Shown: in pieces, positions 6,487 to 46,134 of the stretch | Layout: the number at the start of each line of letters is the position of its first letter | How positions within the stretch are numbered: the stretch's first letter is position 1 | Source of the DNA: Elsinoe ampelina | Taxonomy: Eukaryota | Assembly: GCA_010093995.1 (NCBI GenBank) | Contig: ML992505.1 | Location: 1,656,670-1,720,669 of the forward strand | Direction: 5' to 3' | Length of the DNA: 64,000 bases | Position numbers and translations under genes: made by a program | Notes under the pieces: model-generated | What the model was told of the DNA's origin: nothing | The model's input: only the letters and a program-made list of their open reading frames with translations | Databases searched by the model: none

Positions 6487-7168
6487 TGCTGTAGCGTTGC
6501 AAGAATGTTATGATTTCTTGAGAGGAGATTCGGCTTGAAGAGCAGTATAGATGTGAGATGACTGAATGACTGGTCTCTTCCATATGCCTACTTACCATTC
6601 ATACTTATACCCAGCTCCCATGATCTGAACCACCATACCTACGTCAACCTACCCATATTCGTGTCCGTTATACTCCAGGAGAGGACCCCGAGAACTATTG
6701 GCGTTCGTCAGAAGACGGCACGGGACGAAAGAATTCCTGCAGAGAACCTCCTACCTCCGTAGAGTATGCTTTAAAATGCTTGAATAATAAAAGACTGTGC
6801 CGCGTTGGCGTACGTGTATCGACGCGCATACCACGGCTGTACATCAGTAGAATTTGAAACATACGTGTGCCAATGCCCAACAGCGTGATTGAGCTGCTCG
6901 TCGACTTGTTCAGGATGCGATATAGCCAAGAGTGTGATTATGGGCATCGTGAGATGTCGTGCATCGTCCCAAGGATCTGTGTTACCAAGTGTTTGGTAGG
7001 AAAGTGAATTTGATCAACAAGGAAGATCAGGGGACAGGCCAAACGAGAGCTTCGGTAAAACTTGCCTGTAGCACCACCGAGGAAAAAGCTGCCGGTGCGC
7101 GTCTTCGTGGTATACGAATTGTCCTGGGCTGAGCAAATCTTAGATGCCAAACACGACAGCATGCTGGA

Positions 7169-8429
7169 ATGTGGATGAGGCGTCTTCATCGACCATGCTT
7201 CAAGTCGAAATGCTCTATCAGATTTAGAAACAATGAATCTCGTTACTATTCTATCACTGCATCTTCTGCTCCGGTCGAAGAGGTGACGGTGCCATGTGGA
7301 TCGAACGGTACTATCAAGCTTAGGTACGAGTCGAGTATGAGCAAGGCTGAACACTCAAATGACGTCTTCCAGGATTCATGGCATGCATGGCGCTACTTCA
7401 GCTACTCCTCCTCCACTAGTGCTGCACTTGTCTCCTAGGTCTTTGACAGGCATCTTCAAGACTCGAGATGACAGCGCCAGCGTGCTTGCACGTCTTATGC
7501 CGTCCGTTGTGGTCGAGATACTCTACAGAGCTGATAGTGTTCGAAAATACCCAACACCAATCCACGATGTGATGTTCGGTTACGACTGGGTACTAAAGCA
7601 TCTCGTCCCCAGCCGCTCATTCCTGGCTCCAACCTTCAATGACCATTCTCCTGCTAGGATCGGCGTCTATGGCGAAGGAAGTGGTGCCGGTCTTGCTGCT
7701 ATGCTCGCCCTGACCGAATGTCGTACGAAGGGTCACCGAATAGCTGCTGCGGCTCTTCATGATCCTCTACTGAATTGGGTAATGCCAGAGGAAGTGACTC
7801 AAGACCTTGATGAAGCAGCTATGAGGCGAGATAGCCGCAGGAGGCCAGCGTTCGTGCCTTCGAATGACACTGATACGTCAATTCTACGAGCTATAGTCTC
7901 TGCACGATCGGAACTCTTCAAAACCCCTGGCGACTGGTTCGACCCTTTTGCATCACCACTACTGTTCTTCCGCTCCTCCAATGCAGCCATTCCTACTTCA
8001 GATCCAAACGCACCTGTCGATGAATTCGCGGAGCTATCTGCCATGAACCAGCACGATTTCATGAGGCAGCAGCTCAAGCTCAGCGCGATGAGCAACTTCG
8101 CAGGACACGACACCGGCATTGATGTCGAGGACGACCCGGTGGGTTCTCTCAGACGATCTGCCCGCAGGTATCCGAGGATCGACAGCGGATTGACCCTGCC
8201 AAACTTTAGACTTACCATTGGTCCGGACGGAGTGTGGCGAGCCCAAGCGGAAGAGTTCACCAAGTATGTCTGGCGGAGTATGATCAGGACAGATGAGTTG
8301 AAGAAGCAGGACATGGCTGCTGCTGAATTGCATGCGGCAGAGAGGGTATTCCACGAGTCGTATGACGGAGAAATACAGGCTGAGGAGTGTCTTGCTGATA
8401 CCGCTGAGTGGCTGAGAGATGTTCTGTAA
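7169..8429 (+). CDS. Alpha/beta-hydrolase-fold protein, probable mitochondrial presequence, 2 exons
   Basis: Arg-rich N-terminus; intron 7324-7372 (GTACGA..CTGAA..CAG) joins TIKLR to IHGMH; YPTPIHDV and RIGVYGEGSGAGLAA resemble HSL-family motifs. Confidence 0.72.
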
Positions 8430-8641
8430 TCGATATGGTAGCAAATCTTATGTGTTTCTTTTGCACAATTATATATGCTCCATCTCATGTTTACCTCTGT
8501 TCTCCCCGATCACACATGTTCCACTAGCGGCAACGATGATTTCACATGCGGGAAGAAGTCCTAATACTCATAATTCACCTCACAATGCCAAAAACGGGAG
8601 GGGGTCCGAAGACAACTCGACATACTTTTCCCCAAGAGGCC

Positions 8642-8647
8642 AAAAAA
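8642..8647 (-). terminator. RNA polymerase III oligo-dT terminator of the tRNA gene
   Basis: TTTTTT beginning 7 nt after the discriminator base. Confidence 0.75.
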
Positions 8648-8671
8648 TGATGGTGGTCAATACGAGGGTCG

Positions 8672-8719
8672 CTGACTGGTATTAGCAATGCATCGTACAA
8701 GGACTATGGTTTAACCCAC
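8672..8719 (-). other. Spliceosomal-type intron 3 of the tRNA-Ile gene (48 nt, inside T-loop / B box)
   Basis: GTGGGT...GCTAAT ACCAGTCAG; exact removal restores GAGTT|CGACCC. Confidence 0.85.
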
Positions 8720-8737
8720 AACTCGCGACCTTGGCGT

Positions 8738-8760
8738 TAACTTGAGATGAGAGGTCATCC
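8738..8760 (-). other. Canonical-position tRNA intron (23 nt, after nt 37)
   Basis: GGATGACCTCTCATCTCAAGTTA, one base 3' of the anticodon; no GT-AG ends; internal GATGA/TCATC hairpin; boundary ambiguous by 1 nt. Confidence 0.88.
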
Positions 8761-8771
8761 TATTAGCACCA

Positions 8772-8821
8772 CTGACAGAAATTAGTGGATGTTTTAAGGC
8801 TAGATCTGATTTGTAACGAAC
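8772..8821 (-). other. Spliceosomal-type intron 1 of the tRNA-Ile gene (50 nt, between D arm and anticodon stem)
   Basis: GTTCGT...CACTAAT TTCTGTCAG; exact removal restores GAGCG|TGGTG. Confidence 0.85.
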
Positions 8822-8888
8822 CGCTCTAACCAACTGAGCTAATCGACCGATTTTTGAAATCATTTGGACCATATTCAACCGCATAATC

Positions 8889-8897
8889 AAATATATA
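8889..8897 (-). promoter_or_regulatory. Upstream TATA element of the tRNA gene
   Basis: TATATATTT about 41-49 nt upstream of the mature 5' end. Confidence 0.5.
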
Positions 8898-9658
8898 CTT
8901 TGTTTGCGTTGCTCGAAATTGCCAGATAGTGAGCAAATGTTGTCGTGATGTACCTCATGCAGCCTTCCTCTTTGGACCATGCGGATGCGGTCAAATAGCA
9001 GAGCTGTCACAGCCTCCCATAGTATCCTGCGCTGAATTTGTAGAGGGTTCATTCCACTGAGTTAATGCAGGCCCCAAAGATGGGTCAGAGAGTGGAGCAA
9101 ATGCGGGCATAGCAACTCAATAGATCGCAGGCAACTCTGACAGACTGCAGAAATGGGTGCTAGAACAATCAAGCACTGGTGCGCAAAGAAACGTGCTCGC
9201 TGCGCATGTCAAGTATCGTAAGATTACCGCATGAGAGCCACCAGGGTCACATCAGTGGCTGGTGAGGGCCGATGAAGGTCTCGCCCACTTGATTGTCCCT
9301 GACGTCATTTCCCCAGCTCCTCATTTTGTCCACATGGACATCCTCTTTCCCCCTTGACCGCCATCTGTTCTCTCAGTACATTCGGAGCGACCGAGCAAAG
9401 CAGTCAATTACAACAAGTCAGTTTAAAACAGAAACTAGAACGGCCTGGACTCCGAAGATCACAAAAAGGTGTGTCCCCTCGATCCTGACAAGCATGGGCT
9501 GTGCCCGAGAGCTCAATTGGGATCTCCCACCAGATCAGAGGATCTGCAAGACCCCGGCCAGGCTTGATATTGCTTTCCGCACCATTGGTATTTGTTTGAT
9601 CCCCACTAACAGATTTCTCTCCCTCAGGCATTAACTAATTACACGTCAATACATCACA

Positions 9659-12900: not shown

Positions 12901-14409
12901 TTACGTAGGTTGTGGTGTTTGGTGAGCACTATCAGGAGATGACGATGTGCTTGTTCCAGCGGCGCTCCAGCTGTCTCTTCGCATGCTAAAATTCGGAAAG
13001 GAGGGTCGTCGCAGTGGTTCACGATCAATGGGCGTTCCGGCTGTGATGTGGATGCTCGGGAGACGCTCAATGGCGGGTAACGATGGGGCATCGGAGACTG
13101 GTCTTGCTGCTGGAGCTGGGACTTGCGGTGTGAGAGACGTGAGAGGTGCAGATGCTCGTCGCGGGTTGACGGGACTGGTGTATGGTGGTGGATCAGCATC
13201 TGGCAGCTGGGTGGACCCAGCAACATCTGTATTGAGGCTGAGATGCCGTCCTCGACTGGCTGCTCGACTGCCAGGGTTTGAAGTCGCTCCGAGAGCATTG
13301 AACGATCTTGGTCGTGAAAGCGTCCTAGCTCTTGAGCTTGCTCTTGACCTCGATTGTGAGTGCGGCCTTGTCCTTGAGCCCTGCAGGGTCAATGTGTCAT
13401 AGTCGCTGTCATTGTCTGACCACGCGGACCCATCGTCTGAGCCGAAACTTGTCATGGAGACATTTGTAAAGGACGAACTACCCCTTCGATGACTTCCTAG
13501 ACTTTCTCGAGACACCCAGGGTCGGAGTGGTCCAGACATGCCAAGGGCTCCAGTGGCGTCAAGCAAAGGCCTTTCTGATTCGCCAGAGTTGCCTCTCACT
13601 CTGCTTCCATCATGTCGGGCGACTCCAAGATCTCCGTAGCTAACAGTGCTGACCCTTCTTGATCGAGGGCGTGACTCGTGCTCGAGAATAAGCGCTTCTG
13701 ATCCGCTGACCTCACGTTCTCTCGCCGCTCTTCGAGACTCTTGTCGCAAGTTTGCCAGTGTTTCATGGTCACCTCTGTCGCGTGCTTCCCTCCGTCTCCG
13801 CCGGCGATCCTGTCGTGCTTCTGCTTCTCTGCGTCGTGCCACTCGGATTTGGTATAAGGACTCCATCTCTTCATTTCGCCTTTCCTCTTCTCGCTCGTTT
13901 GTCTCCGGAAATTCGACCACTGTATCCATGCCCGCTCGCTCCCCTTCCCTACCAATTACTCCTTCATTCTCGCCAGGGACTGCTGAATATTTCGGTAAGG
14001 TCATGACACTCCGAATGCTTGTATTGCGGTTGAGACCTGCTCCTCCTTCGACATGCTCCATCCGGTGGCTGCTTGGAATCGAAAAGGTCGAGTCGCGGAC
14101 ATCGTCTCGCACATGTCCAATAGGGTGTATGTGGCTGAAGGCGGAAGCAAAGGACTGTATGCTTGCCCTCCACGACTTGCGCTTGGTATAGCCATGTTCG
14201 CGCTGTAATTGTTTCGCTCGGCGATTGAAATACCAGAAGAAGAAAATGATGCAAAAGACCAGAATGGAGATGACTACGACTAGGACCTAAGCACAGTCAG
14301 GGCTGTCTTCTGAAAGACAAGCACGTATGCATTGACATACAATAACAATCGTCTGTGTGCTGACACCTCCACTAGGCTGATCAAGCTGTTGTCGCGAAAC
14401 GAGTCGCAT
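12901..14409 (-). CDS. Single-pass membrane protein with long disordered tail carrying PY motifs, 2 exons
   Basis: ATG 14409 MRLVSRQQ...TIVI, intron 14287-14340 (GTATGT..CTGAC..TAG), VLVVVISILVFCIIFFFWYFNRR TM segment leading in frame into the 403-aa ORF; LPKY and PPPY motifs. Confidence 0.7.
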
Positions 14410-44395: not shown

Positions 44396-46134
44396 ATGGC
44401 GCTACTACTGCATTCCTCTCGCATGAGTCTCAGAAGCCCGCAAGCGAGGGTCACCTACAGATCATTATCTCACAGCGTCCACGGAAACTCGATTGACCTC
44501 TACAACTATACATCAGGTCGTTGGTTATGGGACGAGGAGAGACAACTCATGGCCCGACAGAAGTGGTTCAACGTCAAAGCACTTGCAACCGCTGCGGCTG
44601 ACGTGAAGGGGGCTGGTAGTTGTACTGCAATCACCAAGATAGCTGATGGAGATCACAGTCGAGTGCTTCGACTTCTTCTGGACAATGAAGAGTCCGTCGT
44701 GGTACGGATACCATATCCGAGGCAGCCAGATGCCACATCGTCCATCAAATCGGAAGTGGCAGTAATGTCCTTTGTAGATCTATCCCAAGTCTCTGCACTG
44801 CGATAGTTGCTGATCGGGGCAGGTTGAAGAAGTCCTTGGAGTACCAGTGCCTCGGCCTCTTCTATGGGAGCCGACCGCGGACAACCCTGTCGGATCGGAG
44901 TATCTAATGATGGAGGAAGCTCAAGGCTCATCGCTTTACGACAGCTGGCATCTCAAGAACATAGAGAAGAAGACCAAGATCATTGACCAACTCGTCAGCA
45001 TTCAAACCGCACTTGCATCAACAGACTTTGCTGCGTTCGTCGTCCTTAGCAAATCTATGCGAATGTTTCTCTGACAATTTGTAGTCACGGAAGTCTCTAT
45101 TTCTCTGCCGAAGCTCCTAAGGGCAGCCTCGATGTACCACCGGTGACGACTGTCCTGGACAGCAAGGGCGAGATGCTTGCTGCAAGATACAGAATTGGAC
45201 CGCTTGCAGATCTTGACAGATATCGAGCGAGGAGCCCAGATCGTGGACCGTGTGGGTTTTTTTGGATGCAGGAGTCTCGCTTGATGACTGACTTAACCTC
45301 AAGGGTGCACGGCACGAGATTGGCTGAAAGCCATAGCGGAGAATCAGATCTCCCATCTTGATGCTCACAGCAAGTGGTCCAAGAAGCCAAATCAATACAA
45401 CGATGCTCGGAGAGATCTTTATCAGAAGTTGATCCACTTATCAGGAATGAGCACCATGCACCAAGGAGACTGTCTTCCCCGACTTTGGCACGGGAACAAT
45501 TTCAGCCCGCACAACATCTTCATCACCGACGACAGAGTGACCAGTATCACTGGCTGGAGGGGATCAACGATAGGCCCACTACCATTCCTCGCTACTTATC
45601 CTTACTATATGGAACACGACGGTCCGCACGTGTACGATCTGCCACCCGACTATTTGACGGATGAGAGGCAAGGCTGGAGGCTAGGCAGCGCATGGCATGC
45701 TACGATGGTGTCATTGATCTACGACCAGAAGCTCGAGCTGCGATCTCCCATGCTCCATCAGGTACTACATTCACCGCTCTATCCCATTCTGAGACGCCTC
45801 GCCATGTTTGCGTCATGGAACTCGTCTCATCCTGGTTTCATGTTTGGTTGCATGGTTGAGCTCACCCAGTAAGTGGCAGAAATGATCACTCGGACTTGAC
45901 TGACATTGATACAGACGCTGGAATGAATTCTCCTCAGTCGAGTGTCCGATTGAATGTACCTGGGATGAAGCCGAACGGTACTTTTCGGACCTTGACAGAT
46001 GGAATTTGTTGACAGACAAGTGGGAGCAGGTCATGGAGATGATAAGCAAGGATGGGTACACATCGAACGAGGATTATGATGAGGCACGAAAAGCGTTCTT
46101 CGGAGGTTCATTCTATAGCTGTAGAGTGACCTAA
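44396..46134 (+). CDS. AIM9-like / aminoglycoside-phosphotransferase-fold protein, paralogue B, 5 exons
   Basis: LYNYTSGRWLWDE, NPVGSEYLMMEEAQG, HGSLYF; introns 44774-44822, 45035-45084, 45252-45303, 45869-45914 at the same positions as in paralogue A. Confidence 0.8.

Follow-up and report, generated by a model that had tools for sequence, protein, structure and literature searches.

Can a nuclear tRNA gene carry introns of the kind that the spliceosome removes from mRNA precursors, and still function? The types of nuclear introns are treated as separate, the spliceosomal ones belonging to RNA polymerase (Pol) II transcripts in the available text of PMC12530127, and the tRNA introns being cut out by a protein endonuclease at position 37/38 in fungi and animals in that of PMC10485636. 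The question is raised by a tRNA-Ile(AAT) gene located in the window, i.e. the whole 64,000-nucleotide stretch of Elsinoe ampelina DNA that was analysed. This gene is interrupted by three introns, two of which look like short fungal mRNA introns. The best reading of the sequence is that this gene and its relatives are working Dothideomycete tRNA genes whose transcripts would have to be processed by the spliceosome as well as by the tRNA endonuclease. The presence of spliceosome-type introns in a functional tRNA gene can be assigned a probability of about 0.78, whereas the whole chain of events, including transcription by Pol III, appears only slightly better than an even bet.

Structure of the gene

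The gene occupies positions 8848..8654 on the minus strand, and so do all of its parts described below. Direct reading and a script parse both yield four exons (27, 11, 18 and 18 nt) that, when joined, form a perfect 74-nt tRNA-Ile(AAT) cloverleaf with T33, A37, the discriminator A73, the anticodon AAT and every stem paired; ARAGORN identifies this joined form as tRNA-Ile(aat). The anticodon AAT is read as IAU, and tRNA-Ile(AAT) is the major isoleucine tRNA. A protein encoded next to the gene is identical to one listed by NCBI under Elsinoe ampelina.

Exon 1 (8822..8848, 27 nt) encompasses the 5' strand of the acceptor stem, the whole D-arm with the A-box region, and position 26. It is followed, at site 26/27, by intron 1 (8772..8821, 50 nt), which is of the mRNA type, with the donor GTTCGT, the acceptor CAG and the branch site CTAAT at 8785..8781, where the branch A (8782) lies 10 nt from the end of the intron. 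Exon 2 (8761..8771, 11 nt) consists of the 5' strand of the anticodon stem and the loop up to A37, including the anticodon, and is invariant across the genes compared here. Intron 2 (8738..8760, 23 nt) is a canonical tRNA intron at site 37/38, without GT-AG ends. Exon 3 (8720..8737, 18 nt) extends from position 38 through the 3' strand of the anticodon stem, the variable loop and the 5' strand of the T-stem to T54 and T55. Intron 3 (8672..8719, 48 nt), again of the mRNA type, is inserted at site 55/56 inside the T-loop, splitting the B-box region; it has the donor GTGGGT, the acceptor CAG and the branch site CTAAT at 8685..8681, with the branch A (8682) also 10 nt from the intron end. Exon 4 (8654..8671, 18 nt) supplies the remainder of the T-loop, the 3' strands of the T-stem and the acceptor stem, and the discriminator A73. 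The preliminary description of the locus, which had proposed the four-exon, 74-nt cloverleaf and placed introns 1 and 3 with their GT, CTAAT and CAG signals at the non-canonical sites 26/27 and 55/56, is confirmed on these points, by the reading and the parse and, for the joined form, by the ARAGORN call.

Visibility to tRNA finders and chance controls

It had been anticipated that standard tRNA finders would miss such a gene, and this is indeed the case: ARAGORN reports no genes in the whole 64-kb window, Rfam at the gathering threshold produces no matches in the window, and the Rfam tRNA model gives the genomic form 17.3 bits, short of the gathering score of 29. When six constructs with the spacers removed in various combinations were submitted to ARAGORN, calls were obtained for three and none for the genomic form. 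Removal of introns 1 and 3 yields the same cloverleaf with a 23-nt intron in the anticodon loop, the anticodon being mislabelled because the boundary of intron 2 can slide; the call made after removal of intron 3 alone is a spurious alternative fold.

Chance resemblance or an assembly artefact is refuted by several controls and has a negligible probability; no points in favour of this explanation were found. A single copy of the 27-nt exon 1 is present in the window, and none of 100 shuffles yields a match. The full set of splicing signals (GTNNGT, CTRAY with the branch A 9–13 nt from the end, and YAG) is found in 10 of the 1,023,176 spans of 48–55 nt on both strands of the window, the two tRNA spacers included. 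In a local exhaustive test of 633 constructs, from which one or two GT..AG spans were removed, ARAGORN made three calls with the right 5' end; intron 3 was removed in all three, and the correct stems were restored by the proposed pair only. As a window-wide control, 16,033 GT..AG spans of 40–70 nt were deleted one at a time, which gave a single, doubtful junction-spanning call elsewhere; this call (plus strand, with 12953..13003 removed) is antisense to part of a coding region and was dismissed as a false positive. The contigs of a DNA sequencing run match the locus letter for letter, with no other letters, and four independent loci with similar interruptions come from other assemblies.

Splice signals and the class of the introns

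Together with these four loci, which are described in the next section, the window gene provides seven mRNA-type spacers in five genes, all within the range of 48–55 nt. Each of the seven starts with a GTNNGT donor (GTTCGT, GTGGGT, GTTAGT, GTAAGT, GTTAGT, GTAAGT and GTGAGT) and ends with a YAG acceptor (CAG, CAG, TAG, TAG, TAG, CAG and TAG). Six of them contain CTAAT or CTAAC, the branch A being 10–12 nt from the 3' end; the exception, in which CTRAY is absent, is the T-loop intron of the metagenomic locus L001.

The RNA-verified mRNA introns in the window are 48, 49, 49, 53, 60 and 159 nt long, with GT-AG ends at six of the seven joints. The lengths of the two spacers in the window gene (50 and 48 nt) match this size class, in agreement with the earlier statement that they are as long as mRNA introns found here. 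As had also been stated, GTTCGT and GTGGGT occur at 45035 and 45252, where both introns are predicted only. Neither hexamer is among the commonest forms of fungal donors. Three RNA-like runs (X3, X4 and X7), which contain spliced joints in neighbouring genes, include no contig over 8467–9372; since libraries of this kind lose short structured RNAs, the lack of coverage counts neither for nor against splicing.

The two introns at unusual sites might, alternatively, be ectopic protein-spliced tRNA introns, with the endonuclease cutting at motifs that resemble the bulge-helix-bulge (BHB) and the GT and AG ends being incidental. Elsewhere, tRNA genes are known to contain several introns, which may lie in the D-arm and in the T-loop. 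Non-canonical tRNA introns in some red algae are mentioned in the accessible part of a 2023 review (PMC10485636), which also states, against this alternative, that the heterotetrameric enzyme of fungi and animals excises 37/38 introns only. In a home-made test for the BHB (3-nt bulge, 4-bp helix, 3-nt bulge), run without a positive control, no arrangement in any of the seven spacers was better than those in shuffled sequences, 26–99% of which scored as high or higher. A 4-bp central helix flanked on either side by more than one pair is not found in any of the seven spacers, and the local folds put the 3' splice sites inside helices. Furthermore, the GT..AG ends, the GTNNGT donors and the CTAAY at a fixed distance (in six of the seven) would serve nothing in the endonuclease pathway. 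Endonuclease-cut introns at these two sites are thus very unlikely.

Related genes in other fungi

A scan of metagenomes with a search pattern that required neither GT nor AG detected four further tRNA-Ile(AAT) genes (L001–L004) with a spacer at 25/26 or 26/27; in prokaryote genome contigs, the same pattern found no loci, as expected. All four metagenomic loci have a fungal donor, a CTAAC branch site and YAG at the intron-1 site, so the tRNA fragments joined by GT..CTRAY..YAG spacers that the preliminary description proposed to seek in relatives do exist. The identity of intron 1 between the genes is 0.55–0.65, compared with 53–56 identical nucleotides among 56 exon positions. In three genes, the GT-AG frame of this intron falls at 26/27, and in the other two at 25/26; therefore, it is the signals rather than the sequence that are conserved. 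The T-loop intron of L001 (53 nt, GTAAGT...ATAG) is located at 54/55, one nucleotide from the 55/56 site in the window gene. An intron of 8–23 nt at the canonical 37/38 site is present in all five genes.

Exon 1 is identical in the five genes except for position 6. Among the four complete genes, the exon differences are confined to two base pairs, each of which is changed on both sides: 6:67 is A-T, C-G or G-C, and 52:62 is A-T or G-C, so that all 84 stem cells are paired. The fifth gene, L002, has no 3' exon in the available sequence of at least 250 nt, and a T7 run comes straight after the 5' strand of its T-stem. Judging by its sequence, this intron-bearing copy, at least, looks truncated or dead.

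The gene also appears to have further copies in its own genome. The contig graph of the DNA run branches within the gene: a 40-nt unitig (8814..8853) has a depth of 620, compared with 222–240 in the flanks, and a second contig is common over 8824..8853 and then diverges. Contig depth and graph, from a DNA run that may itself be the source of this assembly, suggest that exon 1, along with the initial 8 nt of intron 1, is common to about three genome copies. The locus is therefore probably not unique in the genome.

These observations bear on the possibility that the gene is a silent or decaying copy, i.e. that the introns were inserted into a disused tRNA gene whereas uninterrupted paralogues supply tRNA-Ile. 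The missing 3' exon of L002 is compatible with this scenario, the split B-box region may block transcription, and intact tRNA-Ile(AAT) paralogues elsewhere in the genome are possible. However, neutral decay would preserve neither the complete pairing of the stems, with compensatory changes at both variable pairs in four genes from different fungi, nor the splice signals in introns with diverged interiors, nor the terminators that follow all four complete genes (see below), nor the common intron start in the approximately three genome copies. The pattern that the preliminary description had named as speaking against its reading, loss of the splice signals accompanied by decay of the exons, is absent: the signals are kept while the spacer interiors have diverged, and the exon changes are compensatory. 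Decay is accordingly an improbable explanation, and the comparison points to functional tRNA genes with spliceosome-type introns.

Transcription

A T6 run, a terminator of the Pol III type, is located at 8642..8647 on the minus strand and starts 7 nt after the discriminator. In all four complete genes, a run of T4–T7 is found within +1 to +10 of the 3' end; the background frequency, measured on 18-nt stretches of the window, is 3.2%. Exon 1 has an intact A-box region that does not vary among the genes, as judged from the general box consensus. In the window gene and in L001, the T-loop intron splits the B-box region, which is intact in L003 and L004; by textbook rules, such a split at the DNA level should weaken Pol III transcription. 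The TATA-like element TATATAT (8891..8897, minus strand) is found 49 to 43 nt upstream of tRNA position 1, where it may serve as a promoter, and similar elements precede L001 (at −39) and L002 (at −36). No TATA-like element is found upstream of L003 and L004, in which the T-loop is intact.

Two other features of the T runs were considered and set aside. Avoidance of T runs inside the introns was rejected as evidence of Pol III transcription, the verified mRNA introns also having runs of three at most. The absence of T4+ runs within the genes is uninformative, given that 72% of random 170-nt stretches lack them as well.

The same spliceosomal introns could also reside in a tRNA that forms part of a small host RNA, transcribed by Pol II and capped. 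In that case, mRNA-like co-transcriptional splicing would be followed by the release of the tRNA by RNase P and RNase Z; only the first step would differ, and the core claim of a functional tRNA gene with introns of the spliceosomal type is compatible with this variant. The spliceosome normally acts on Pol II transcripts, according to the available text of PMC12530127. The TATA-like element 36–49 nt upstream of three of the five genes fits this variant, and the split B-box in two of the genes argues against classical TFIIIC-dependent initiation by Pol III. However, the T runs right after the 3' ends of the four complete genes are expected for Pol III and unneeded for Pol II, two genes combine an intact T-loop with the lack of a TATA-like element, and no gene model is visible on the flanking minus strand. 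Moreover, upstream TATA elements serve Pol III genes in some fungi too. Transcription by Pol II thus seems rather unlikely. Pol III, as in the case of the fission-yeast U6 gene, is the most likely polymerase. The A-box region is intact and a T-run terminator comes right after the 3' end; initiation may rely on the TATA-like element because intron 3 splits the B-box region.

Comparison with known systems

The closest precedents are other non-coding RNA genes. The accessible part of PMC5855946 describes spliceosomal introns in ascomycete rRNA genes (Bhattacharya et al. 2000) and in the genes for the U6 (a Pol III transcript), U1, U2 and U5 snRNAs; the mRNA-type introns in U6 genes are known from Schizosaccharomyces pombe and other fungi (Tani and Ohshima 1989, 1991; Canzler et al. 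2016). The similarity to fungal U6 is extensive: in both cases, the gene of a small, highly structured non-coding RNA, transcribed by Pol III for U6 and most likely so for the tRNA, has a conserved functional sequence broken by a short intron with GT-AG ends and a branch site, so that spliceosomal removal would be needed before the RNA works, and the gains are lineage-specific, at slightly different positions. The differences are that U6, unlike tRNA, is located at the catalytic centre of the spliceosome, reverse splicing being the usual explanation of its introns, and that the tRNA considered here also has a protein-spliced intron, so that two machineries would act on one molecule. The rRNA introns are likewise of the spliceosomal type, in genes of filamentous ascomycetes that are not transcribed by Pol II, but rRNA, unlike tRNA, is a long Pol I transcript with a different processing pathway.

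Genes for tRNAs that contain several introns, including non-canonical ones of the BHB type, occur in Thermoproteales, DPANN archaea, Cyanidioschyzon merolae and nucleomorphs. These genes resemble the present one in that introns in the D-arm region and the T-loop divide them into several exons, and in being invisible to standard finders; however, their introns adopt the bulge-helix-bulge fold and are cut by the endonuclease, whereas here this fold is absent and spliceosomal signals are found instead. Intron 2 is of the same kind as the canonical eukaryotic 37/38 intron, and introns 1 and 3 are not.

The introner-like elements of Dothideomycetes, the fungal class to which this gene belongs, are proposed as a source of new short spliceosomal introns in the available text of PMC4457414, but they are multi-copy, near-identical introns. 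No look-alikes of the tRNA introns were detected within the 64-kb window. The similarity between introns 1 and 3 is matched by 129 of 1000 signal-preserving shuffles; these introns are alike in their signals only.

No description of a spliceosomal intron in a tRNA gene was found in the literature searched, i.e. outside subscription journals and supplements, and an older report may exist. The one text in which the phrase turned up speaks of 'non-spliceosomal tRNA introns', and PMC3879985 contains nothing on spliceosomal introns in tRNA genes. To this extent, the search agrees with the earlier statement that no case in a tRNA had been described.

Proposed maturation pathway and implications

From the features described above, we infer the agent that cuts introns 1 and 3, the order of the steps and the polymerase. 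The nuclear gene for the major isoleucine tRNA would produce a primary transcript with three introns that belong to two unrelated types. Introns 1 and 3 would be ordinary short U2-type GT-AG introns, excised by the spliceosome in the nucleus through lariat formation at the branch A of CTAAT, 10 nt from the acceptor. Only after their excision would the transcript form the L-shape that is recognised by RNase P, RNase Z and the tRNA splicing endonuclease, and intron 2 at 37/38 would then be excised by the endonuclease, with the participation of tRNA ligase.

A tRNA that requires both machineries would break the separation between the types of nuclear introns. The most abundant Pol III product would join the U snRNAs and rRNA, the few non-coding RNAs in which spliceosomal introns are known. 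[quoted passage not shown] In practical terms, tRNA finders would miss essential tRNA genes in some fungi, and the recipe is to remove GT..CTRAY..YAG spacers before scanning.

A broader proposition, which we put forward only tentatively and consider less likely than its negation, is that most or all of the major isoleucine tRNA genes in a lineage of filamentous ascomycetes, including at least Dothideomycetes, are interrupted by spliceosomal introns. If so, the tRNA sets annotated with standard tools would be systematically incomplete in such fungi, and Pol III initiation at the genes in which a T-loop intron destroys the B-box would have come to depend on an upstream TATA promoter. In such a lineage, Pol III transcripts would need the spliceosome as an indispensable enzyme of tRNA maturation, and the decoding of the commonest isoleucine codons would be tied to splicing capacity, creating a direct link between splicing and translation.

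Gene structure and genomic context

The minus-strand sequence at 8848..8654 agrees exactly with the layout put forward in the preliminary description, a tRNA-Ile(AAT) gene with exons of 27, 11, 18 and 18 nt separated by spacers of 50, 23 and 48 nt. When the four exons are joined by script from their coordinates, ARAGORN identifies the 74-nt product as tRNA-Ile(aat) with all stems paired. Removal of spacers 1 and 3 alone yields the identical cloverleaf, its anticodon loop now interrupted by a 23-nt intron; ARAGORN labels the anticodon of this form wrongly because the boundary of the 23-nt intron can slide by a few bases. The gene escapes the standard finders, as had been anticipated: ARAGORN makes no call on the unspliced genomic form and finds no tRNA gene in the whole 64-kb window, Rfam gives no match in the window at the gathering threshold and, with the cutoff relaxed, its tRNA model scores only 17.3 bits (gathering score, 29), with exon 1 aligned to a false 3' half. 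According to passages of a 2023 review, the eukaryotic mode of tRNAscan allows for introns at 37/38 only (PMC10485636).

The tRNA gene is flanked by two plus-strand genes, one for an alpha/beta-hydrolase-fold protein that ends near 8429 and one for a BAR/PH-domain (Slm1-like) protein with its first exons from near 9400, and no minus-strand gene model enclosing it was found. An NCBI-named Elsinoe ampelina protein matches the BAR/PH protein at 100% identity, and proteins of other Elsinoe species match it at 94%, 85% and 79%; the window thus originates from E. ampelina or a very near relative (Dothideomycetes, Pezizomycotina). Three public RNA-like runs contain seven spliced joints in the neighboring genes, six of them with GT-AG ends. 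The RNA-supported introns near the locus measure 48, 49, 49, 53, 60 and 159 nt, so that the 48-nt and 50-nt tRNA spacers belong to the size class of mRNA introns, as previously proposed. The 159-nt intron, in the 5' region of the BAR/PH gene (9467-9627, plus strand), is seen in two RNA runs and is three times longer than usual in the window. An RNA contig from one of the runs (X3) omits 53 nt at 6543-6595 on the minus strand, a gap that starts with GTAAGT and has no AG within 4 nt of its 3' end either way, explained by a non-canonical acceptor or else by a quirk of the contig. The contigs of the three runs represent the neighboring genes and not 8467-9372, which is neutral for the tRNA.

In a DNA run (X1), the contig graph forks within the tRNA gene. 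One unitig of 40 nt (8814..8853) takes in 5 nt upstream, exon 1 in full and the initial 8 nt of intron 1; its depth is 620, compared with 222 and 240 in the flanking contigs, and a separate 1,883-nt contig (depth 209) has 8824..8853 in common before continuing into unrelated sequence. The simplest reading of these depths, in a run that is possibly the source of the assembly, suggests about three genomic loci with the same exon 1 and intron 1 start and different sequence beyond, so that the interrupted gene would be a member of a small family rather than a lone accident.

Chance controls

Several independent controls show that the tRNA gene with its spacers is more than a chance assemblage. The window contains exon 1 only once, and no match appears in any of 100 shuffles. 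Among 633 single or double removals around the locus, three give calls with the correct 5' end; spacer 3 is removed in all three, and only the proposed spacer pair restores proper stems. The full set of signals (GTNNGT, YAG, and a CTRAY whose branch A stands 9-13 nt before the end, in spans of 48-55 nt) is present in 10 of the 1,023,176 spans in the window, and these 10 include both tRNA spacers, with precisely the boundaries needed to restore the tRNA. Across the whole window, removal of each of 16,033 GT..AG spans (40-70 nt) produced a single junction-spanning ARAGORN call; this 84-nt tRNA-Thr (ggt), obtained by removing 12953..13003 on the plus strand, falls on the antisense strand of a long coding frame; it is doubtful, probably a false positive.

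Interrupted tRNA genes in other fungi

The preliminary description had proposed a search of relatives for tRNA parts split by mRNA-type spacers. Metagenomes were scanned for a D-arm followed, at a distance of 35-65 nt of any sequence, by the tRNA-Ile(AAT) anticodon stem-loop, with no GT or AG demanded, and the four loci recovered on four contigs (L001-L004) all carry mRNA-type signals. The D-arm intron is 48 nt in L001 (donor GTTAGT, branch ACTAAC, acceptor TAG, position 26/27), 52 nt in L002 (GTTAGT, TACTAAC, TAG, 26/27), 55 nt in L003 (GTAAGT, CTCTAAC, CAG, 25/26) and 54 nt in L004 (GTGAGT, CCTAAC, TAG, 25/26); with the window gene included, the branch A lies 10-12 nt from the acceptor in all five D-arm introns. 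A 53-nt T-loop intron (GTAAGT...ATAG, without CTRAY) interrupts L001 at 54/55, one nucleotide from the 55/56 site of the window gene, and the T-arm is uninterrupted in L003 and L004. L002 (593-730) keeps both its D-arm intron and its canonical intron intact and has no 3' exon in the available sequence, the 5' strand of its T-stem running straight into seven T; this copy is probably truncated or dead. The canonical 37/38 intron is found in all five genes (23, 8, 10, 16 and 13 nt). Next to L004 lies a Bcp1 fragment with best named matches in other Dothideomycetes (92-96% identity), not in Elsinoe, and hence the interrupted tRNA-Ile trait spans more than one genus. In the window gene, CCA directly follows the discriminator (8651-8653, minus strand); as L001, L003 and L004 lack it, this is probably fortuitous rather than an encoded CCA end.

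The first 56 exon positions are nearly invariant between genes (53-56 of 56 identical), and intron 1 shows 55-65% identity in global alignments that include the common signals. In the four complete genes (the window gene, L001, L003 and L004), the exons differ in two base pairs only, each altered on both sides: 6:67 (A-T, C-G, G-C, A-T) and 52:62 (A-T, A-T, G-C, G-C). All 84 stem cells show standard pairing, and no unpaired position differs. Decaying exons with lost signals, the outcome that would have spoken against the original interpretation, are not what is seen: the splice signals are kept, the intron interiors drift and the exon changes are exclusively compensatory. Judged from the sequences compared, the pattern is that of purifying selection on a working tRNA, combined with selection on the splice signals, the remainder of each intron being left to drift. 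In every gene, the 25/26 and 26/27 boundaries give the same mature sequence and just one of them yields GT-AG, which one differing by gene; GT-AG itself thus seems to be what matters, the gene-to-gene boundary switch being otherwise hard to explain.

The main rival, in which these spacers are removed by the tRNA endonuclease via bulge-helix-bulge (BHB) motifs, is highly improbable. A test of our own design, run without a positive control, covered every arrangement that sets each splice site within a 3-nt bulge or at its margin and has a 4-bp helix joining the two bulges; the flanking helices were scored, and 500 shuffles were made per intron. The share of shuffles that score equally well or better is 26-99% across the seven mRNA-type spacers. 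In none of the seven is a complete central helix flanked by two or more pairs on either side, and the 3' splice sites fall within helices in local folds. Furthermore, as the 2023 review describes in the passages cited, the heterotetrameric endonuclease of fungi and animals reads the folded tRNA body and cuts 37/38 introns only (PMC10485636). Overall, the comparative evidence from relatives supports the initial interpretation, and we assign a probability of roughly 0.78 to the reading that functional tRNA-Ile genes of Dothideomycete fungi carry spliceosome-type introns.

Transcription and processing

Across the five genes, the A-box region of exon 1 is intact and shows no variation, and a T4-T7 run begins within 10 nt past the discriminator in all four complete genes (background, 3.2% of 18-nt stretches in the window). 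Together, these features point to RNA polymerase III, which is more likely than Pol II to be the transcribing enzyme. The B-box region is split where the T-loop is interrupted, that is, in the window gene (by intron 3) and L001. A TATA-like element lies 36-49 nt upstream of the window gene (8891-8897), L001 and the truncated L002, and none is present in L003 and L004, where the T-loop is intact. This association with a split or missing T-loop, in five genes, hints at a possible promoter switch to TATA-dependent Pol III initiation, a mode used by U6 and by fission yeast Pol III genes.

In the proposed order of processing, the spliceosome would excise introns 1 and 3 in the nucleus, the internal exon that it sees being 52 nt (11 + 23 + 18) and not a micro-exon. 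The T-arm and the junction of D-arm and anticodon stem would form only after this step; because end-processing and the endonuclease both read the folded tRNA body, they would follow the spliceosome. The 23-nt intron 2 would be the last to leave, cut at 37/38 by the endonuclease, with a ligase acting thereafter; in both yeasts studied, this endonuclease is located on the mitochondrial surface, according to the same review passages (PMC10485636). U6 of fission yeast and other fungi is likewise a Pol III transcript with spliceosomal splicing, and spliceosomal introns are reported in U1, U2 and U5 genes and in ascomycete rDNA, in the portions cited of one article (PMC5855946).

Origin and novelty

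No look-alikes of the tRNA introns occur in the window, nor do introns 1 and 3 resemble each other beyond the signals (129 of 1000 signal-preserving shuffles align equally well); the 64 kb give no hint of a repeated introner. The usual model of intron gain in U6 and rRNA has an intron reverse-spliced into an abundant RNA, with reverse transcription and recombination as later steps, and a similar origin of the tRNA introns is a matter of speculation.

The preliminary description was aware of no spliceosomal intron in a tRNA gene, and likewise no paper on one was found in a full-text literature search with most subscription journals outside its scope, so that an older report is possible. Recent work, in the passages cited, still keeps the intron types apart, with spliceosomal introns assigned to Pol II transcripts (PMC12530127). 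Spliceosomal introns in non-coding, non-Pol II genes are known; what would be new here is the tRNA host and the presence of a protein-spliced intron in the same gene.
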